Shown: positions 39,767 through 49,561, numbered from the stretch's first letter. The stretch is DNA of 64,000 bases from an uncultured Polaribacter sp. (GCA_964477255.1 CAYZDK010000001.1:28539-92538), one strand, 5' to 3'. Numbers and translations are program-made. The notes: generated by a model not told the origin, from the sequence alone.

Positions 39767-39774
39767 TAAATTTG
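39767..39774 (+). promoter_or_regulatory. -7 box (TAAATTTG) for the M23-merR operon
   Basis: TAnnTTTG consensus. Confidence 0.5.
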
Positions 39775-39819
39775 CGAGTTATTGTAATTAACGATTCAAA
39801 AGAATCTTCTAATAACAAA

Positions 39820-39841: not shown

Positions 39842-40804
39842 ATGGCAAAAGTAAAATATTATTATGATGAGGACACGCTTTCTTACAGGAAAATTTCTGT
39901 AAGTAAAAGCGACTATTATAAGCGCATATTATTTACTTTATCGGGAATTATTCTAGTGGCTTTTTTAGGTTTTATTGGGTTTAGTCAGTTCATCATGTCA
40001 CCAAAACAAAAAGCACAACAAAGAGAGTTAGAAAATTTAAAACTTAACTACGAAGTTCTCTCAAAAAAGTTAGACGAAAGCTCAAGCATTTTAGCTCAGA
40101 TTCAAGAGAGAGATAACAATATTTATAGAAGTTATTTTGAAGCCAATCCTATACCAGAAGAGCAACGAAAAGCAGGTTTTGGAGGAGTAAATAGATATAA
40201 ATACTTAGACGGATTTGATAATTCTGACATGATTAAGAATTTAACAAGAGAAGTAGATATTCTATCTAAGCAAATTGTTGTACAGTCTAAATCTTTTGAT
40301 GAAATAGTTGCTTTAGCAAAAGAAAAAGAAGATATGCTGGCTTCTATACCTGCTATCTTACCAGTAAAAAAAGGAGATTTTTATGTGGCTTCTGGTTTTA
40401 AAATGCGAATGCACCCAATTTTAAAGATAAATAAGTTTCATAAAGGAATGGATTTTACTGCTCCAAAAGGGACACCTATTTATGCTTCTGGAAATGGTAA
40501 AGTTTATGCCGCTCAACGTAGTAGTACATTTGGTAAAGTTGTAGTTATAAAACATGGTTATGGTTATAAAACCATTTATGCGCACATGAGTAAATACGTT
40601 GTAAAAAGAGGGCAAACTGTAAAAAGAGGAGATTTAATAGGCTATGTTGGGAATACTGGTCTTTCTGTTGCGCCACATTTGCATTATGAGGTGCATAAAA
40701 ATGATATAGCTGTAAACCCAATTAACTTTTATTACGGAGACTTAACTTTAGATGAATTTGCAGCACTACAACAAGATTCTGAAGATAGCCAATCTTACGA
40801 TTAA
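39842..40804 (+). CDS. M23 family metallopeptidase
   Basis: N-terminal TM, coiled coil, HKGMD (HxxxD) and PHLHYEV (HxH) zinc motifs. Confidence 0.93.
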   Translation: MAKVKYYYDEDTLSYRKISVSKSDYYKRILFTLSGIILVAFLGFIGFSQFIMSPKQKAQQRELENLKLNYEVLSKKLDESSSILAQIQERDNNIYRSYFEANPIPEEQRKAGFGGVNRYKYLDGFDNSDMIKNLTREVDILSKQIVVQSKSFDEIVALAKEKEDMLASIPAILPVKKGDFYVASGFKMRMHPILKINKFHKGMDFTAPKGTPIYASGNGKVYAAQRSSTFGKVVVIKHGYGYKTIYAHMSKYVVKRGQTVKRGDLIGYVGNTGLSVAPHLHYEVHKNDIAVNPINFYYGDLTLDEFAALQQDSEDSQSYD

Positions 40805-40812
40805 CTAACGCT

Positions 40813-41142
40813 ATGTTTATAGATTTACCAGAGAAACGATATTACAAAATGGGCGAAGTAGCAAAAGCTTTTCAAGTAAACCCATCTCTTCTTCGTTTCT
40901 GGGAGAAGGAATTCGATATCATTAAACCCAAAAAAAACAAGAAAGGAAATAGATTATTTACCCAAGAAGACATAAAGAATTTAAAACTTATTTATAACCT
41001 TGTTAAAGAGCGCGGTTTTACCTTAGAGGGAGCTAAACAAAAGCTCAAGAAAAACCCGGAAGGAATTTTTAATAATCACGAAATAATTAGTAGATTAGAA
41101 GCAGTCAAAGCAGAACTGCTCAAAATTAAAAATTCACTTTAA
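40813..41142 (+). CDS. MerR family transcriptional regulator
   Basis: YKMGEVAK, LRFWEKEF, GNRLF, GFTLEGAK wHTH motifs. Confidence 0.92.
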   Translation: MFIDLPEKRYYKMGEVAKAFQVNPSLLRFWEKEFDIIKPKKNKKGNRLFTQEDIKNLKLIYNLVKERGFTLEGAKQKLKKNPEGIFNNHEIISRLEAVKAELLKIKNSL

Positions 41143-41152
41143 ACTTCACCAA

Positions 41153-42967
41153 ATGTCTAAAAAGTATGTAGATCTAGAAACTTTAAAATACATACTTTAT
41201 GATATTCATAAATTAGAAAATATTCTAGAAAACGAACGATTTCAAGACCATGATATTGAGTCTTTAAATTTGTTTATAGATTCCGTTAAAGAATTTTCTG
41301 ATAGAGATTTATATCCTTTTTTTAAAGAAATGGATGAAACTCCTGCATATCATAAAGATGGGACTGTTTATGTACATGATCAAGTAAAAAAAGTTATGGA
41401 GAAATCAGGCGAATTAGGCGTGATTTCTGCTTGTTTTGATTACGATGATGGTGGACTACAAATTCCTTTTTCTGTTCTGCAAGCTGCCGTTTTTATTATG
41501 GATGCTGCTAACAATCATTTGCCAGGTTATCCTAGTTTAACACAAGGAGCAGCAGAATTATTGGTAGAATTTGGGAATGAAGCGCTGAAAGAGACCTACG
41601 TTCCTAAAATGTTATCTGGAGAATGGGGAGGAACTATGTGCTTAACAGAACCACAAGCAGGAAGTTCATTGTCGGACATTGTTACAAAGGCTACACCAAC
41701 AAATGAGGGATACTATAAAATTTCTGGTCAAAAGATATTTATATCTGGAGGAGATTACCAAAATGCGAATAATATCATACACTTGGTATTGGCAAGAATA
41801 GAAGGTGCACCTAAAGGCACAAAAGGGATTTCTTTATTTGTAGTTCCTAAAAAAAGATTGGATAAAAAAGGTGAATTAACATCTAATAATGTAACAACTG
41901 TTGCAGATTTTCAGAAAATGGGACAACGTGGGTATTGTACTACACATTTAGGATTTGGAGATCAAGACGATTGTAGAGGCTGGCTAGTTGGTGAAGCAAA
42001 TAAAGGATTAGCGCAGATGTTTTTAATGATGAATGGGGCTAGAATTGCTGTTGGTAGAGGTGCTGCTGCAATTGCCATGGCTGCCTACAGAAGTTCATTA
42101 CAATACGCGAACGAAAGACCACAAGGAAGAAAGTTAACAAAAAATGGTAAAAAGAATCCATCAGAAAAGCAAAACTTAATTATTGAACATCCAGATGTAA
42201 GACGAATGTTATTATTACAAAAGTCTATTGCAGAAGGTTCTTTAAGTTTAATTCTGCTCGCATCAAAATACCAAGATATTATACATTCTTCTGCATCAAA
42301 AGAAGAAAAAGAGAAGTATCATTTGTTGTTAGAAATGATAATTCCTATAGTAAAAACATATCCTTCAGAGGCAGGTTTACAAGCAGTTAACAATGGCTTA
42401 CAAGTGTTAGGTGGGTATGGATTCTGTTCCGATTACCTCTTGCAACAGTATTTTAGAGATATCCGTATTTTTTCAATATATGAAGGTACTACAGGCATAC
42501 AATCTCAAGATTTATTAGGTAGAAAAGCAACCATGCAAAATGGTAAAGGGTTAGAGTTATTATCTGTTGAAATAATGAAAACGACAGCTCTAGCGAATAA
42601 AAACGAACCATTTACACAGTACGCTACAACCTTGTCAAAAAAACTAGAACAAACTAAAAAAATTATGCAGTCGTTAATGCCTTTTGCAATGAAAGGTAAT
42701 TACGAACGCTTTTTAGCAGATGCAAATTTGTTTATGGAATATATGAGCATTGTAGTTGTTTCTTGGTTATGGTTAGAAATGGGCTTAGATGCAAACAGAA
42801 AACTAAATAGTAAGCATAAAAAATATAATGATGTCTTTTATGAAAGTAAAATAGAAACCATGAAATTTTACTTTAAATACGAACTTCCAAAAACAGAAGC
42901 TCTTGCTATATCTTTACTAGATAAAGAAGAAATTACAATTAAAAAAGATAGAGAATTTATTATTTAA
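41153..42967 (+). CDS. Acyl-CoA dehydrogenase (long, FadE5/DmdC-like)
   Basis: GTMCLTEPQAGS, ISGQKIFISGG, LQVLGGYG, IYEGTTGIQ with catalytic Glu. Confidence 0.92.
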   Translation: MSKKYVDLETLKYILYDIHKLENILENERFQDHDIESLNLFIDSVKEFSDRDLYPFFKEMDETPAYHKDGTVYVHDQVKKVMEKSGELGVISACFDYDDGGLQIPFSVLQAAVFIMDAANNHLPGYPSLTQGAAELLVEFGNEALKETYVPKMLSGEWGGTMCLTEPQAGSSLSDIVTKATPTNEGYYKISGQKIFISGGDYQNANNIIHLVLARIEGAPKGTKGISLFVVPKKRLDKKGELTSNNVTTVADFQKMGQRGYCTTHLGFGDQDDCRGWLVGEANKGLAQMFLMMNGARIAVGRGAAAIAMAAYRSSLQYANERPQGRKLTKNGKKNPSEKQNLIIEHPDVRRMLLLQKSIAEGSLSLILLASKYQDIIHSSASKEEKEKYHLLLEMIIPIVKTYPSEAGLQAVNNGLQVLGGYGFCSDYLLQQYFRDIRIFSIYEGTTGIQSQDLLGRKATMQNGKGLELLSVEIMKTTALANKNEPFTQYATTLSKKLEQTKKIMQSLMPFAMKGNYERFLADANLFMEYMSIVVVSWLWLEMGLDANRKLNSKHKKYNDVFYESKIETMKFYFKYELPKTEALAISLLDKEEITIKKDREFII

Positions 42968-43740
42968 TGAATGCAATAAAACAGTTTAATTTAAAAGAAA
43001 AAGTAGCCATTGTAACAGGTTCTAGCAAAGGAATAGGTTTAGCTATTGCCAAAGGTTTGGCAGAACAAGGTGCAAAAGTTGTAATTTCTAGTAGAAACCA
43101 AGAGGCATGTGAACAAGTTGTAAATCAACTTAATGAAGAAGGTTTAGAAGCAAAGGCAATTTCTTGTCATATTGGAGATGAAAATCAAAGAAAACAGCTA
43201 GTAAAACAAACTATAGAGGCTTTTGGAAGAATTGATATTTTGGTAAATAATGCCGCAATTAATCCAGTTTTTGGACCTATTGAGGAAGTAGATCCTTCAA
43301 TTTTTGATAAAATTATGGATATAAATGTAAAAGCACCTTGGGCATTATCTAATCTAGTTTTACCGCATTTTAAAAATAATAACAAAGGAAGTATTATAAA
43401 TATAGCTTCTGTAGAAGCACTTACTCCAGGCTTTGGGTTAGGCCTATATAGTACAAGTAAAGCAGCAATATTAATGCTTACAAAAAATCAGGCAAAAGAA
43501 TGGGGAAGATATGGTGTAAATGCAAACGCTATTTGCCCTGGTTTAATTAAAACAAAGTTTAGTGCTGCATTATGGCAAAATGAAAATCTATTACATCGTC
43601 TAGAAAAATCTATTCCATCAGGAAGAATGGGAATGCCAGAAGAGATGGTTGGGTTAGCATGTTTGTTAGCTTCAGATGCTGGAAGTTATATGACAGGTGG
43701 CGTTTACACTGCTGATGGTGGTTATATGATTTCAGGATAA
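42967..43740 (+). CDS. SDR oxidoreductase (DHRS4-like)
   Basis: [26 protein letters not shown]. Confidence 0.92.
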
Positions 43741-43751
43741 TAAAAAGATTT

Positions 43752-44966
43752 ATGAATTTTCAATACACTCAAAAATCAATCGATTTACAAAATAGGCTTA
43801 ACAAGTTTATAAATGATGAAATAGTACCTGTAGAAGCAGAATATCTAGATTTTCAGTCAAAAAACATAAACAAATGGAAGCGATTTCCAAAGATTGAAGT
43901 ATTAAAAAATAAAGCAAAAGCTGTTGGTCTGTGGAATCTGTTTTTACCCAAAGATCATGGCGAATTAAGTCCAGGTTTAACCAATTTAGAGTACGCGCCT
44001 TTAGCAGAAATAATGGGAAGAAGAATATGGATATCAGAGATTTTTAATTGTTCTGCACCTGATACTGGAAATATGGAAGTCTTAGCCAAATATGGTAGTA
44101 ATTCTCAAAAGAAGAAATGGTTAACACCTTTGATGAATGGCGAAATTCGTTCCGCATTTTTAATGACAGAGCCACAAGTTGCTTCTTCGGATGCAACCAA
44201 TATTGAAACTTCTATACAATTAGATGGAGAAGAATATGTTATTAATGGCCAAAAATGGTGGTCTTCAGGAGCTATGGACCCTCATTGTAAAATTGCCATA
44301 GTTATGGGAAAAACAGATGCTGAAAAACCAAGACATCAGCAACAAAGTATGATTTTAGTTCCTTTAGATACTGAAGGAGTAGAAATTGTTCGTCCACTTT
44401 CTGTTATGGGGTATTATGATTCTCCTGAAGGACATGCAGAAATTAAACTGAATAATGTTCGAGTTCCAAAAGAGAATTTAATTTTAGGAGAAGGAAGAGG
44501 TTTTGAAATAGCGCAAGGACGTTTAGGTCCAGGAAGAATTCACCATTGTATGCGACTAATAGGAATGGCACAATATGCCTTAGAACTTATGTGTAAAAGA
44601 GCACAAGAGAGAAGAACTTTTGGAAAATATTTTTATGAATATAGTAGCATTCGTCAAGAAATAGCAAAATCACAGTGCGAAATAGAACAGGCAAGACTTT
44701 TAACCTTATCAGCGGCAGATAAAATGGATAGGTTTGGAAACAAAGAGGCCAAAGATATAATTGCCATGATAAAAATAGTTGCGCCAAAAATGGCTTATAC
44801 AGTTATAGATAGAGCAATTCAAATTTTAGGCGGAAAAGGTGTTGGTCCAGATACTTATTTAGCCCATTATTTAGCTATCGCTAGAATGTTACGTTTAGCA
44901 GATGGCCCTGATGAAGTGCATATGTATCAACTTGGTAAAAGTTGTATCAAAAAATATGGAAAGTAA
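43752..44966 (+). CDS. Acyl-CoA dehydrogenase, ACAD10/11/LvaC type
   Basis: [48 protein letters not shown] (Asp in the catalytic base position). Confidence 0.9.
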
Positions 44967-46024
44967 TGCGTGCACAAAAAGTAAGAAAAGGAGAAGAATT
45001 ACCTGAGTTAGCCTTAAAAACGCATTTAAAAAACGAACAACTAATTCAAGATGTTTCTAGTGATTTAACTATAGAACAATTTACGCATGGTTACTCTAAC
45101 TTAACGTATTTGTTATCTATTGAAGAAAAACAATTTGTACTAAGAAAACCGCCAAAAGGAGCCATTAAAAGAGGTCATGATATGCATCGTGAATTTAGTG
45201 TGCAATCTGCACTTTATGAGCAGTATAAAAAAGTACCAAAAATGTATGCCTATTCTAATGACACCACTGTTTTAGGTAGTGAATTTTACATCATGGAAAA
45301 GGTAGATGGTGTTATTTTGAATTATGCTGAAGCTAAAAGGCGAAATATTTCACCAGAAAAGTATCTTACCATTTCAAACCAATGGTTAGAAACTTTAGTT
45401 GCTTTACATAAAGTAGATTACAAAGAGGTTGGATTAGCAGCATTAGGAAAACCAGAAGGTTATGTAGCTAGGCAAGTTACCAATTGGGGAAAACAATACC
45501 TTAAGGCAAAGACCGAAGAAGTTATAGAGGCAAGCAAAGTGATGCAATGGATGGAAGAAAATCAGCCAAAAAGTTACAAACACTGCTTAATTCATAATGA
45601 TTATAAGTACGATAATGTCGTTTTTAAAGATAATTCTTGGCAAGAAATAGTTGCAGTTTTAGATTGGGAAATGGCTACTCTGGGAGATCCACTAATGGAT
45701 TTAGGAACTTCTTTAGGCTATTGGACAGTAGCTTCAGATCCAGAGTTTATAAAACAAGGTATTCCTTCACCTACCATTTTTGAGGGAAATCCTTTACGAA
45801 GTGAAATTGTTCATAATTATGCAATAAAAACAGGAACAACTATCCAAGATTTTGTGTTTTACTATGTGTATGGACTATTTAAAATTGCAGTAATTGCGCA
45901 ACAGATTTATTTTAGATACGAAAAAGGATGGACAACAGACCCTCGTTTTTCTCAATTAAATAAAGCTTCTCAATTATGTTGTAAATTAGCACTACAGGCA
46001 ATTCAGAAAAATAGAATTGATTAG
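44966..46024 (+). CDS. APH-family phosphotransferase, ACAD10/11 kinase/LvaA type
   Basis: GYSNLTY, VLRKPP, HDMHREF, HNDYKYDN (HxDxxxxN), VLDWE, GDPLMDL; TAATG overlap with the upstream ACAD. Confidence 0.9.
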   Translation: MRAQKVRKGEELPELALKTHLKNEQLIQDVSSDLTIEQFTHGYSNLTYLLSIEEKQFVLRKPPKGAIKRGHDMHREFSVQSALYEQYKKVPKMYAYSNDTTVLGSEFYIMEKVDGVILNYAEAKRRNISPEKYLTISNQWLETLVALHKVDYKEVGLAALGKPEGYVARQVTNWGKQYLKAKTEEVIEASKVMQWMEENQPKSYKHCLIHNDYKYDNVVFKDNSWQEIVAVLDWEMATLGDPLMDLGTSLGYWTVASDPEFIKQGIPSPTIFEGNPLRSEIVHNYAIKTGTTIQDFVFYYVYGLFKIAVIAQQIYFRYEKGWTTDPRFSQLNKASQLCCKLALQAIQKNRID

Positions 46025-46035
46025 AAATTCATCTT

Positions 46036-46788
46036 ATGCAAGTAAAAGATAAAGTAGTAATCGTAACAGGAGCAGGTTCTGGTATTGGTAAAGCAACTGC
46101 AATTCACTTTGCCAAACACGGAGCAAAAGTTGTTGTTTCTGATATAAATACCGAAAAAATGCAAAATGTTGCAGATGAAATTGTAACAAATTTTGGAAAA
46201 GCACTACCTATAAGTGCAGATGTTTCCGATTATGAAGATGTAGAGCACTTAATAACACATACTGTAGCAGTTTATGGTAAGTTAGATGTTTTGGTGAATA
46301 ACGCAGGTATTGGACCAAATTATTTGAAAACACATGAATCTAGACTTAAAGATTGGGATAAAGTAATAGCGGTAAATCAAACAGGAGTTTATTATTGTAT
46401 GAAAGTTGCTTTGAATCAGTTTATAGAACAAGGTTATGGTAACATTGTAAATATTGCATCTTTGGCTGGTTTAAAGGCATCACCAAATAATATTAGTTAT
46501 AGTGCTAGCAAATTTGCAGTTGTTGGGATGACAAAATCTGCAGCTTTAGAATATGCCTCAAAAAATATTAGAATTAATGCAATTTGTCCTGGGTATACAG
46601 AGTCTGCATTACTAGATTTGTTGCTTAGTGCAAAACCAGAGATGGATAGTATTTTAAAAAATATAATACCTATGAAACGTTATGGTAAAGCAAAAGAAAT
46701 TGCAGAGGCTGTTGTTTGGTTAGCATCAGATAATACAAAATTTATTACAGGCCAAACCATCACTTTAGATGGTGGGACATCCTTATAA
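46036..46788 (+). CDS. SDR oxidoreductase
   Basis: TGAGSGIG, NNAGI, YSASK, PGYTES. Confidence 0.92.
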   Translation: MQVKDKVVIVTGAGSGIGKATAIHFAKHGAKVVVSDINTEKMQNVADEIVTNFGKALPISADVSDYEDVEHLITHTVAVYGKLDVLVNNAGIGPNYLKTHESRLKDWDKVIAVNQTGVYYCMKVALNQFIEQGYGNIVNIASLAGLKASPNNISYSASKFAVVGMTKSAALEYASKNIRINAICPGYTESALLDLLLSAKPEMDSILKNIIPMKRYGKAKEIAEAVVWLASDNTKFITGQTITLDGGTSL

Positions 46789-46826
46789 ATTCAATTAATA
46801 ATCAACGTAAAATAAAAATAGAAATT

Positions 46827-47435
46827 ATGAAAAAATGGTTAATTCCAGTAATTGTTATTGTAGTTATTGTATACGCTATGTATAGTTGGGCAAAAGGTTT
46901 TAATAACCAAGCTGTAGTGCTCCAAGAAGATGCAAAAACAACTTGGTCTAATGTAGAAAGTGCTTACCAAAGAAGAAACGATTTAATAGGTAACTTAGTA
47001 AAAACCGTACAAGGTGCTGCAGATTTTGAGAAAAGTACACTTACAGAAGTTATTAATGCAAGAGCAAAAGCTACCTCTGTAAATATAAACGCAGGAGATT
47101 TAACAGCTGCTAATATGGCTCAATACCAACAAGCACAAGCTGGTTTATCTGGTGCATTATCTAAATTATTGGTTTCTGTAGAACGTTATCCAGAATTAAA
47201 AGCAAACCAAAACTTTTTAGAGTTGCAAAGTCAATTAGAGGGTACAGAAAATAGAATAAATGTAGCTAGAGATCGTTTTAATGAGGGTGTAAATCAGTAC
47301 AACAAGCACATCAAAATATTTCCAAATTCATTATTGGCAGGAATGTTTAATTTCGAAGAAATGGATAGATATCAAGCTAATCCTGGATCTGAAAATGCAC
47401 CAGACGTAAATTTTGATTTTAATAAAAACGAATAA
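46827..47435 (+). CDS. lemA: LemA family protein
   Basis: N-terminal TM; YQRRNDLI, ERYPELKANQNF, EGTENRINVAR motifs. Confidence 0.95.
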   Translation: MKKWLIPVIVIVVIVYAMYSWAKGFNNQAVVLQEDAKTTWSNVESAYQRRNDLIGNLVKTVQGAADFEKSTLTEVINARAKATSVNINAGDLTAANMAQYQQAQAGLSGALSKLLVSVERYPELKANQNFLELQSQLEGTENRINVARDRFNEGVNQYNKHIKIFPNSLLAGMFNFEEMDRYQANPGSENAPDVNFDFNKNE

Positions 47436-47872
47436 TGTCTGAACTCGAAGATTTTCTTACCAAAAAAGACGAGCAAGAAGTTATAGAAGCGATACAAAAG
47501 GCAGAAAAGAATACTTCTGGAGAAATACGTGTACATATTGAAGCGCATACAGATGAAGATCATTTTGAGCATGCTGCACACATTTTTCATGAACTAGGTA
47601 TGGATCAAACAGCCTTAAGAAATGGGGTGTTAATTTATATTGCTGTTCGCGATCATCAGTTTGTAATTCTAGGAGATAAAGGAATTAATGAAGCTGTGCC
47701 AAACAATTTTTGGAATACTACAAAAGATGTAATGCAAGAATCTTTTAAGAAAGGTGATTTTAAGAAAGGAATTATAGACGGAATTTTAAGAGCAGGAGAA
47801 GAGTTAAAAACCCACTTTCCTTATCAAGAAGATGATGAAAATGAACTGAGTAATGAGATTTCTAAAGGATAA
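47435..47872 (+). CDS. TPM domain protein
   Basis: EKNTSGEIRVH, RNGVLIY, LGDKGIN motifs. Confidence 0.88.
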   Translation: MSELEDFLTKKDEQEVIEAIQKAEKNTSGEIRVHIEAHTDEDHFEHAAHIFHELGMDQTALRNGVLIYIAVRDHQFVILGDKGINEAVPNNFWNTTKDVMQESFKKGDFKKGIIDGILRAGEELKTHFPYQEDDENELSNEISKG

Positions 47873-47876
47873 GAAT

Positions 47877-48695
47877 ATGAAAAGCCCTTTTTTTATGCAA
47901 AAACGCTATCAATTGCTTTTTTTGGCATTATTATTTTCGATTTCTTTAGTCGCGCAAGGTTTTCAAATTCCTGAAAAACCAAAATATCAGACCAGTGTTT
48001 ACGATTACATCAACTTACTTTCTGCCAATGAAAAGAAAAGTTTAGAAAGAAAACTAATAAAGTATTCAGATACAACTTCTACCCAAATAGTAGTGGCTAT
48101 AATTTCGTCTACTGAAGGAGAAAATATTAATTATCTGGCTGCAAATTGGGGAGAAGCTTGGGGAATTGGACAAGCTAAAGAAGATAATGGTGTTTTGATG
48201 CTTTTAGCAAAAGACGATCGAAAAATTGCAATACAATCTGGAAAAGGAGTTGAATACTTGCTAACCGATTTTCAAGCCAAACGAATTATAGATCGCGTAA
48301 TAATTCCTGAATTTAGGAAAGGAAATTTTTATAGTGGATTAAACAAAGGTTCAGACTATATTTTTAGAACACTTCAAGGAGAGTTTAAAGGAACTAGAAA
48401 AGAAGGAAGAAAAGAATCTAACGGAATTTCTTTTGGTAAAATCATTTCTATTGTAGTATTTATTCTCATTTTTCTACTTATTTCTAGAGGAAATAGAGGT
48501 GGAGGAAGAGGAGGTAAAAGAAGTGCTGCTGGAGATATTTTAACTGCTATTTTGCTTAGTAATGCTGGCAGAAGAAGTGGTGGCTTTGGAGGAAGTTTTG
48601 GCGGTTCGTCTGGAGGTTCCTTTGGAGGAGGAGGCTTTGGTGGTGGTTTTGGTGGAGGCTCTTTTGGAGGAGGAGGTGCTTCTGGAGGTTGGTAA
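47877..48695 (+). CDS. TPM domain protein (YgcG-like) with Gly-rich tail
   Basis: TSTQIVV, WGIGQ..EDNGVL, C-terminal GGGFGGGFGGGSFGGGGASGGW; start moved to ATG 47877. Confidence 0.9.
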   Translation: MKSPFFMQKRYQLLFLALLFSISLVAQGFQIPEKPKYQTSVYDYINLLSANEKKSLERKLIKYSDTTSTQIVVAIISSTEGENINYLAANWGEAWGIGQAKEDNGVLMLLAKDDRKIAIQSGKGVEYLLTDFQAKRIIDRVIIPEFRKGNFYSGLNKGSDYIFRTLQGEFKGTRKEGRKESNGISFGKIISIVVFILIFLLISRGNRGGGRGGKRSAAGDILTAILLSNAGRRSGGFGGSFGGSSGGSFGGGGFGGGFGGGSFGGGGASGGW

Positions 48696-48712
48696 TTGTT
48701 TTAAGAATTCTT

Positions 48713-49561
48713 ATGAAAAAATATGTAGTTATTTTAAGTTTGTTTATTTTTTCTACATGTCAAAATTTTGGGCAACTTAACTTTGAAGCAGATTTGCCTT
48801 TTACTTTAAGCGAAGTTTCTGGAATTACCACGGTGCCAAATTCAGATTTAATTTGGATGATTAACGATAGTGACAATCGTCCAATTTTGTTTGGTGTAAA
48901 CAATCTAGGTAAAACAGAACGAGAAATTCTGGTTAATGCCAAAAATATAGACTGGGAAGATTTAACCTCTGATGCAGAAGGAAATATTTATATTGGAGAT
49001 TTTGGAAATAACAACAATGAAAGAAAGAACCTTAGAATTCTTAAAATAGATAAAAAATACCTAGACAAAAAAACGGCAGAAGTTGAAGAAATAGAGTTCG
49101 AATACGAAGATCAAGATGACTTTCCGCCCAAAAAGAAGAAACGCTTTTTTGATGCTGAGTCTTTCTTCTATTTCAAGAATCATTTTTACATTTTCACCAA
49201 ATCTAGAGTAAATAAAAAGTATGGCGAAACCAATGTGTACAGTGTTCCAGCCAAAAAGGGGAAACATAAAGCAAAACGTATAGATAATTTTGACAATGGG
49301 AAAAAAGATAAATCTTGGATAACCTCTGCATCAATTTCTCCAGATGGCAATAAAGTGGTACTACTTTCGCAAAAAAATGTTCTAATTTTTTCCGACTTCA
49401 AAAAAGATATGTTTTTTAAAGGTAAGCGAAAAGAAATTGATTTCAAGTTCTATTCCCAATTAGAAGCAATATGTTTTAAAGATGCAACTACTGTATTTAT
49501 TACAGACGAACGTAATAAAGATGTAGGAGGAAATTTGTATACACTTAACCTAGAAAATTAA
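48713..49561 (+). CDS. Exported hypothetical protein, probable beta-propeller
   Basis: Signal or lipoprotein N-terminus, EVSG, DWEDL, YIGDFGNN, DAES, QLEAI repeats; start moved to ATG 48713. Confidence 0.7.
   Translation: MKKYVVILSLFIFSTCQNFGQLNFEADLPFTLSEVSGITTVPNSDLIWMINDSDNRPILFGVNNLGKTEREILVNAKNIDWEDLTSDAEGNIYIGDFGNNNNERKNLRILKIDKKYLDKKTAEVEEIEFEYEDQDDFPPKKKKRFFDAESFFYFKNHFYIFTKSRVNKKYGETNVYSVPAKKGKHKAKRIDNFDNGKKDKSWITSASISPDGNKVVLLSQKNVLIFSDFKKDMFFKGKRKEIDFKFYSQLEAICFKDATTVFITDERNKDVGGNLYTLNLEN

Follow-up and report, generated by a model that had tools for sequence, protein, structure and literature searches.

A conserved five-gene cassette of Polaribacter as a likely split-gene counterpart of the ACAD10/ACAD11 and LvaA/LvaC systems

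What might a kinase of the aminoglycoside phosphotransferase (APH) fold be doing among genes for acyl-CoA metabolism? The question is raised by a 64,000-nucleotide stretch of DNA from an uncultured Polaribacter sp. (the whole of which we call the window), where five genes at 41153-46788 on the plus strand form a compact cassette. An initial annotation had read these genes, in order, as an acyl-CoA dehydrogenase (ACAD) with a catalytic Glu, a short-chain dehydrogenase/reductase (SDR), an ACAD with the motif LADGPDEVH, an APH kinase and a second SDR, and gene calls and Pfam profiles agree with that order:

41153..42967, plus strand: ACAD_L, an acyl-CoA dehydrogenase of 604 residues (Pfam Acyl-CoA_dh_N/M/1 and PF12806)
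42967..43740, plus strand: SDR1, 257 residues (Pfam adh_short, 1e-59)
43752..44966, plus strand: predicted ACAD of the ACAD10/11/LvaC type, 404 residues (match to PDB 2wbi/8v3u and signature residues)
44966..46024, plus strand, with an alternative TTG start at 44942: APH-fold kinase (Pfam APH PF01636, 1.1e-42)
46036..46788, plus strand: SDR2, 250 residues (Pfam adh_short, 2e-62)

The junctions, read from the sequence, are likewise those first described, with TAATG overlaps at 42963-42967 (ACAD_L/SDR1) and 44962-44966 (ACAD11-type gene/kinase), 11-nucleotide gaps at 43741-43751 (SDR1/ACAD11-type gene) and 46025-46035 (kinase/SDR2), and a spacer of 10 nucleotides between the stop of an upstream merR gene and the start of ACAD_L. 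Also in keeping with the initial annotation, the gene calls place no regulator gene, CoA ligase or LvaB-sized open reading frame within the cassette. All five reading frames are intact and retain their catalytic and cofactor motifs. The kinase gene overlaps the stop of the ACAD11-type gene with its own start, an arrangement indicative of genetic coupling; this start is most likely the ATG at 44966 rather than the TTG at 44942, since the orthologs align from that Met.

In answer to the opening question, we consider the cassette likely to be the bacterial equivalent, in split-gene form, of mammalian ACAD10/ACAD11 and of the LvaA/LvaC step of Pseudomonas, with three helper enzymes added. The initial annotation had already posited a Flavobacteriaceae split-gene version with a second SDR and a second ACAD, and homology, motifs and gene order agree in pointing the same way.

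The ACAD11-type flavoenzyme and its kinase partner

In a PDB search the third gene of the cassette recovered the ACAD11 structures 2wbi/8v3u with an E-value of 3e-132, the next ACAD family, MCAD, being reached at 3e-40, and its product is 55% identical to human ACAD11. The catalytic Asp within LADGPDEVH aligns with D753 of mouse ACAD11, replacing the Glu usual in ACADs, and both the HCMR motif (H634, R637) and an upstream Arg (R626) are kept in a segment that is identical to that of ACAD11 and is conserved in 25 related loci. In mouse ACAD11, R626, H634, R637 and the catalytic D753 have been tied to the handling of the 4-phospho substrate (PMC12440821). Given the gap in E-value to MCAD and the retention of all four signature residues, we assign the protein to the ACAD10/11/LvaC subfamily, apart from the ordinary β-oxidation ACADs, and propose that it converts 4-phosphoacyl-CoA to 2-enoyl-CoA and phosphate. 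The description of this second ACAD as ACAD10/11- or LvaC-like thus holds, and the grouping with ordinary β-oxidation enzymes that had been named as the contrary outcome was not what we found.

The product of the fourth gene has as its closest solved relative PDB 9o56 (E-value 2e-78, 41% identity), and it matches the kinase domain of mouse ACAD11 with an E-value of 7e-46 and 35% identity, bearing out its original comparison with the ACAD10/11 kinase. Its R60, E76, H210-N-D212-Y-K214 loop, N217 and D233-W234-E235 are invariant in an alignment of 14 kinase sequences (A1). These residues match the catalytic residues named in a preprint on a Caldalkalibacillus thermarum homolog of the ACAD10 kinase, where the set is given as a β3 Arg, an αC Glu, an HxDxK loop, a metal-binding Asn and DWE (bioRxiv 10.1101/2025.09.10.675409). 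The PDB table labels 9o56 only as "Aminoglycoside phosphotransferase", with 355 residues, and a crystal structure from C. thermarum is reported in the preprint; we infer that the two are the same protein. Across 80 loci from many phyla the kinase mostly adjoins an ACAD with the signature segment and the motif DG[PA]DEVH. On these comparisons we identify the protein of the window as a kinase of the ACAD10/11/LvaA type and as the partner of the ACAD11-type flavoenzyme, and propose that it acts as a 4-hydroxyacyl-CoA 4-kinase. The paired kinase and eliminase activities are proposed because of this family membership together with the published biochemistry: ACAD10/11 and the split orthologs of Burkholderia pseudomallei phosphorylate 4-hydroxyacyl-CoA and release 2-enoyl-CoA (PMC12440821, PMC11342911), and the latter can replace the domains of ACAD10 in vitro (PMC11342911).

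The five genes recur in the same order in nine further Polaribacter genomes, in 19 other genera of Flavobacteriaceae and in one further family of Bacteroidia, at 55-83% identity, and because the order recurs over this range we regard them as one conserved unit rather than a chance array. Our sample of the genus comprised 25 Polaribacter genomes, from which 22 loci were examined (nine fetched loci with the cassette and 13 without it). The kinase is present in ten of the 25, the same ten and no others hold ACAD_L, and the nine fetched loci have an identical five-gene order in the same M23-merR context. In a survey of 301 Flavobacteriaceae genomes, one per genus, the ACAD11-type gene was found in 26, and 19 of the 20 loci fetched from other genera have the same order of the five genes, at 60-78% identity, without merR or lemA. 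In these genera the five genes lie near the head of a cluster of 11-12 genes, in which a Crp-type regulator is followed by the five genes, among which a DUF1330-like gene for about 124 residues often separates the kinase from SDR2, and then by a crotonase, an ADH_N_2 double-bond reductase, a PIG3-type MDR, a third SDR, a MaoC hydratase and an α/β hydrolase or an AMP-binding ligase, the ligase closing the cluster in some of them. In the further Bacteroidia family, genes for the reductase and the MDR lie close to the five-gene core. Among the named carriers are Polaribacter, Aquimarina, Spongiimicrobium, Muriicola and Maribacter, and a partial form occurs in one metagenome-assembled genome of Saprospiraceae. 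A literature search found no paper on this flavobacterial cluster.

Outside Bacteroidota the kinase is widespread, usually beside an ACAD with the same motifs and often with an SDR1-like gene; the full five-gene core was not seen there among the kinase loci examined. The partner ACADs fall into two subtypes, both of which keep the ACAD signature segment (L137, L139, L140, L146, L150, L154, L159 and others). The one to which the protein of the window belongs is marked by ASSDATN and is ACAD11-like, its members being 48-82% identical to the window's enzyme; the other, marked by xGSNPxx, combines MTEPxxxGSNPxx with IYDG[PA]DEVH and is about 40% identical to it. We also observed a simpler, second type of locus in two Polaribacter genomes and in other families of Bacteroidia, in which an ACAD11-type gene (52-56% identity) and a kinase gene (40-45%) are accompanied by short SDR-like genes and, in some cases, by a Crp-like regulator (L021 in G007, L123 in G525, L106, L122 and L124-L126); G007 was confirmed to be without the five-gene cassette.

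Helper enzymes, an unlinked reductase and the proposed pathway

ACAD_L finds its best PDB matches in 8pns (2e-99), DmdC (6ijc, 5e-89) and FadE5 (6kse, 2e-72), and its YEGT motif, with the catalytic Glu, aligns with the same motif of 8pns; we accordingly classify it by homology as an ACAD of the FadE1/FadE2/FadE5/DmdC type with a Glu base. It is the sole ACAD of its type in its genome, with about 28% identity to any other ACAD encoded there, and it tracks the cassette exactly, being present in 10/10 of the cassette-bearing Polaribacter genomes and absent from the rest. We considered whether it could be the general FadE of the genome and rejected this, as it occurs only with the cassette and a separate β-oxidation cluster exists.

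Both SDR1 and SDR2 display the TGxxxGIG and NNAG motifs and the Ser...YxxxK catalytic set of classical SDRs, in which residues after or at the end of β2 distinguish NADP(H) from NAD(H) dependence. In SDR1 a Ser-Ser-Arg (SSR) after β2 is invariant in all orthologs, and in SDR2 an Asp at the end of β2 is equally invariant, so that by this rule SDR1 is predicted to depend on NADP(H) and SDR2 on NAD(H). The best PDB match of SDR1 is the peroxisomal carbonyl reductase DHRS4 (3o4r, 5.5e-58), and genes like SDR1 (51-71% identity) turn up repeatedly next to the ACAD-kinase pairs of other lineages; since it is of the NADPH type and shows this recurrence, we see in it the candidate for the LvaD-like step, that is, a putative 4-oxoacyl-CoA reductase. 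SDR2 in turn matches best the (3R)-hydroxyacyl-CoA dehydrogenase of yeast MFE-2 (2et6, 2.4e-63) and thereafter FabG-like enzymes, and may be a 3-hydroxyacyl-CoA (or 4-hydroxyacyl-CoA) dehydrogenase.

The distribution of the ADH_N_2 double-bond reductase of the long clusters links a further gene to the cassette. This protein matches PDB 4b7c (5e-126), is related to the 2-alkenal reductases and to prostaglandin reductases 1 and 2, and scores 380 bits on the NCBIfam CurA profile, below the cut-off of 440; we classify it from these matches as an NADPH double-bond reductase of the CurA/PTGR1 type. In the other genera it sits within the long cluster. In Polaribacter genomes it is a lone inserted gene far from the cassette, flanked by a fused branched-chain keto-acid dehydrogenase E1 gene and by a gene for a pseudouridine synthase, the cassette and reductase loci of one genome (G012) lying at 0.63 Mb and 1.98 Mb. 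The copy of the window's genome (C85:2016-3002) lies on a contig of 3 kb and is truncated by the contig end, as is one further copy. The reductase is found in 10/10 of the cassette-bearing Polaribacter genomes and in none of the 15 cassette-free ones, with no remnant in three of those that have lost the cassette secondarily (Fisher p = 3e-7, uncorrected for phylogeny). There are three independent joint losses of the reductase and the cassette, a number of pairs too small for a sign test. That reductase and cassette, at separate loci, were gained together and repeatedly lost together suggests that the reductase works in the pathway of the cassette, and is the strongest new evidence of this study; the association holds even where the two lie about 1 Mb apart.

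Based on these assignments we propose that 4-oxo- or 4-hydroxyacyl-CoA most likely enters β-oxidation via a 4-phospho intermediate. The 4-oxo and 4-hydroxy acyl-CoAs would arise directly or once fatty acids with oxygen at even-numbered carbons have been shortened. The NADPH-type SDR1 would reduce 4-oxoacyl-CoA to 4-hydroxyacyl-CoA, the 4-hydroxyl of which would be phosphorylated by the APH-fold kinase; the ACAD11-type flavoenzyme, translationally coupled to the kinase, would then eliminate the phosphate to give 2-enoyl-CoA. Canonical β-oxidation genes, which lie elsewhere in the window's genome on contig C49, would complete the breakdown. ACAD_L and the NAD-type SDR2 could supply ordinary dehydrogenations on these chains, and the unlinked, co-inherited reductase could saturate α,β-unsaturated 4-oxo and 4-hydroxy precursors. 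The substrates may belong to the class of γ-oxidized fatty acids, lactones and oxylipins.

A bolder version of this proposal, which we offer as a doubtful one, is that the core and the reductase make up a dedicated Bacteroidota route for α,β-unsaturated 4-oxo and 4-hydroxy products of lipid peroxidation and for algal oxylipins (e.g., derivatives of 4-hydroxy-2-hexenal and 4-hydroxy-2-nonenal). In such a route the ene-reductase would saturate the C2=C3 bond, SDR2 (with NAD) and SDR1 (with NADPH) would together pass both C4 enantiomers via a 4-oxo intermediate into the form accepted by the kinase, and the FadE-type ACAD would be specialized for oxygenated chains. If true, this would be the bacterial equivalent of mammalian 4-hydroxy-acid disposal.

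Insertion site, history and regulation in Polaribacter

The cassette lies within a run of genes that is itself a feature of the genus:

39842..40804, plus strand: M23 peptidase gene (Pfam Peptidase_M23, 2.5e-35), the first gene of the ancestral M23-merR-lemA-TPM-TPM run
40813..41142, plus strand: MerR-family regulator of 109 residues (Pfam MerR_1, 5.4e-21)
46827..47435, plus strand: lemA, the downstream border of the insertion (Pfam LemA, 2e-55)

By the gene calls lemA is followed on the plus strand by two TPM-domain genes and an open reading frame of 290 residues. The entire M23-MerR-LemA-TPM-TPM-290-residue run (39842-49561) is conserved across the genus, with very short spacers. The M23 gene adjoins merR in all 22 loci examined, and merR directly adjoins lemA in 13/13 of the cassette-free genomes examined, a synteny of relatives that the initial annotation had suggested. 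In other genera merR is not next to the cassette; it is the ancestral neighbor of lemA and was not carried in with the five genes.

In a tree built from the flanking genes the genus falls into two clades, one of nine genomes all without the cassette and another of 13 in which nine have it and four do not. In the cassette tree all Polaribacter copies form one clade (support of 100 in the SH-like approximate likelihood-ratio test, SH-aLRT) nested among other Flavobacteriaceae, and the topology within this clade is congruent with the flank tree. The spacer between merR and lemA measures 21-32 nucleotides in eight of the nine genomes of the wholly cassette-free clade (89 in the ninth) and 100-142 nucleotides in the four cassette-free genomes of the mixed clade. 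The simplest account, with which these spacer lengths fit, is one acquisition of a shortened copy of the longer Flavobacteriaceae cluster followed by at least three losses; the earlier suggestion of an acquired module accords with both trees. We found no convincing direct or inverted repeats or mobile-element marks flanking the cassette, and in GC content and composition it is indistinguishable from its flanks. We rejected the possibility that the remaining genes of the long cluster lie elsewhere in the window's genome: only the double-bond reductase has an ortholog there (73%), and none was found for the ECH, the MDR, the third SDR or the Crp-type regulator.

Several of the related loci depart from the arrangement seen in the window. 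Many have, between the kinase and SDR2, a gene for a DUF1330-like protein of about 124 residues (L013:8821-9186, minus strand; L017:8383-8757, minus strand; L018:10790-11155; L087:10330-10713; L089:10371-10757; and others), for which Pfam gives 8.6e-5 in the case of one copy and PDB 3dca (RPA0582) is matched at 8e-9. In three Polaribacter species SDR1 and the ACAD11-type gene are separated by unrelated, co-oriented genes (L013:11593-12171, L014:11453-12163 and L016:11760-12374, all minus strand), which encode a 192-residue membrane-anchored protein, a member of the VIT1 iron-transporter family and a 204-residue protein of no assigned family; the operon tolerates interruption at this junction. 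In one subclade (L018, L019 and L020, from G020, G013 and G019, respectively) the homolog of the 290-residue open reading frame directly follows the cassette, and lemA-TPM-TPM is gone from the site.

With respect to transcription, a TAAATTTG box upstream of the M23 gene, at about 39769-39776, fits the Bacteroidota -7 motif and may serve as a promoter, and no terminator-like site was found on the plus strand across 39842-49561. A scan for σ70 promoters gave 39 sites against 41 expected, with a consensus that does not fit Bacteroidota. In five Polaribacter species the spacer between merR and ACAD_L, which is 96-209 nucleotides long in these relatives as against 10 in the window, holds the palindrome ACTATGCATGCATAGT, perfect or with one mismatch, just upstream of a TAnnTTTG box:

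Copies of ACTATGCATGCATAGT: L013:14855-14868, L014:15051-15064, L015:5493-5506, L016:15033-15046, L019:1936-1949

The palindrome and the box look like an operator and promoter of the cassette's own in these five species. The palindrome is absent from the other genera, from the cassette-free loci and from the window, where one match with two mismatches lies elsewhere at chance level. Since the cassette of the window is without this promoter and palindrome, it is probably read through from the M23-merR promoter.

Alternatives and comparison with known systems

Several considerations weigh against the kinase/eliminase route that we favor for the window. In the preprint cited above (bioRxiv 10.1101/2025.09.10.675409), ACAD10 and several prokaryotic homologs of its kinase, including the C. 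thermarum enzyme that we take to be 9o56 (2e-78, 41% identity), phosphorylate 1-O-alkylglycerols. By the gene calls, no acyl-CoA ligase, hydratase, thiolase or transporter lies inside the cassette. The roles given to ACAD_L, SDR1 and SDR2 are putative ones, drawn from family resemblance and cofactor motifs. The window lacks, at 46025-46035, the DUF1330-like gene found in most relatives, and the promoter and palindrome of the cassette's own are missing; these last two absences make activity in this particular genome less certain.

The first of these points would fit a kinase that acts mainly on 1-O-alkylglycerols (or monoacylglycerols) in the salvage of ether lipids, the 4-hydroxyacyl-CoA activity then being secondary or wrongly assigned. 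The same preprint has the C. thermarum kinase phosphorylating chimyl alcohol with stimulation by acetyl-CoA, and every residue needed for alkylglycerol activity is conserved in the kinase of the window. We nevertheless judge this reading to be improbable: the kinase gene is coupled in translation to that of an ACAD with its phosphate-handling residues retained, acyl-CoA enzymes surround it in every Bacteroidota locus examined, and the sole FAD-oxidase_C protein of the genome is a 972-residue FAD-oxidase/Fe-S fusion that is not AGPS-like, so that an AGPS route to ether lipids is not evident. Moreover, the alkylglycerol and 4-hydroxyacyl-CoA activities need not be mutually exclusive.

The absences in the window bear on a different reading, under which its cassette is a poorly expressed or decaying remnant that no longer contributes to metabolism. 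The short spacer after merR, devoid of the palindrome and box present in the five relatives, and the disappearance of the small gene between the kinase and SDR2 could both be seen as decay, no other terminal branch in the genus is as long as that of this cassette (0.26), and at least three losses of the cassette have occurred within the genus. Yet the integrity of all five frames and their motifs is not what a remnant would be expected to show, and the way in which the genes are spaced and overlap is compatible with an operon transcribed from the M23-merR promoter, the plus strand showing no terminator. The flank genes of this genome are also on a long branch (0.15), so that the cassette is not evolving unusually fast; the DUF1330-like gene is absent in other species too (G012, G008 and G002), and the unlinked reductase has been retained. 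We therefore hold decay to be an improbable explanation as well. A generic auxiliary β-oxidation operon with an unrelated small-molecule or antibiotic kinase, which might be read from the purely generic Pfam and NCBIfam names (APH, ACAD, SDR) and the want of any curated equivalog above its cut-off, is highly improbable, as the ACAD11-type protein lies some 90 orders of magnitude in E-value from ordinary ACADs and has the motifs of its subfamily, kinase and ACAD remain neighbors in many phyla, and the kinase scores only 32 bits on the NCBIfam APH(3') profile against a cut-off of 205.

Mammals, Pseudomonas and Burkholderia are already known to use the kinase/eliminase chemistry, and the core is in that sense not new. 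What is particular to the present case is the fixed five-gene unit of Bacteroidota, its shortened insertion in a merR-lemA operon, the co-inherited reductase and the natural occurrence of cassette-free sister species. Such species within one genus are ready-made natural knockouts. Together, these features offer a cheap route to learning which oxygenated lipids are removed by marine, algae-associated flavobacteria, and make it possible to test whether this kinase family acts on 4-hydroxyacyl-CoA or on alkylglycerol, which is in dispute.

Mammalian ACAD10/ACAD11 (mouse ACAD11 8v3u/8v3v and the human ACAD domain 2wbi; PMC12440821, PMC11342911) share with the proteins of the window the pairing of an atypical ACAD, which has an Asp base, HCMR and the upstream Arg, with a kinase of the APH fold, at 55% (ACAD) and 35% (kinase) identity, and the same chemistry is predicted for the latter, from 4-hydroxyacyl-CoA through 4-phosphoacyl-CoA to 2-enoyl-CoA. 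Whereas the kinase is N-terminal in the mammalian fusion, the window has separate, TAATG-coupled genes with the ACAD first and the kinase second, lacks a HAD domain and has the pair accompanied, within a conserved unit of five genes, by a FadE-type ACAD and two SDRs. The C. thermarum kinase (taken as 9o56) resembles that of the window in the Arg-for-Lys residue of β3 and the HxDxK, N and DWE motifs, at 41% identity, but differs in that the preprint reports it as assayed for 1-O-alkylglycerol kinase activity (bioRxiv 10.1101/2025.09.10.675409). ACAD_L is comparable in length, PF12806 C-terminal domain and YEGT Glu to the 600-residue ACADs of the Pseudomonas aeruginosa type (8pns, 8r1e), DmdC (6ijc) and mycobacterial FadE5 (6kse), with E-values from 2e-99 to 2e-72, and differs from them in being found only together with the cassette.

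Closest in organization are the levulinate operon lvaABCDE(FG)/lvaR of Pseudomonas putida (Rand et al. 2017, as described in PMC6692424 and PMC12440821) and the split orthologs of B. pseudomallei (PMC11342911), which likewise have a separate kinase and ACAD-type eliminase and an SDR that would make the 4-hydroxyl from the 4-oxo group. As described, the lva operon is also a catabolic operon that feeds β-oxidation. Relative to that description, the window has no LvaB-sized gene, there being only 11 nucleotides between the kinase and SDR2, and its cassette has neither an LvaE ligase nor a σ54-type LvaR, follows a different gene order and adds the 604-residue ACAD and a second, NAD-type SDR. Among the other kinase loci scanned, those of other Pseudomonas species show a kinase-SDR pair only. 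The DUF1330-like gene of the relatives holds the position downstream of the kinase that the 12-kDa LvaB is described as holding in P. putida, a likeness of position.

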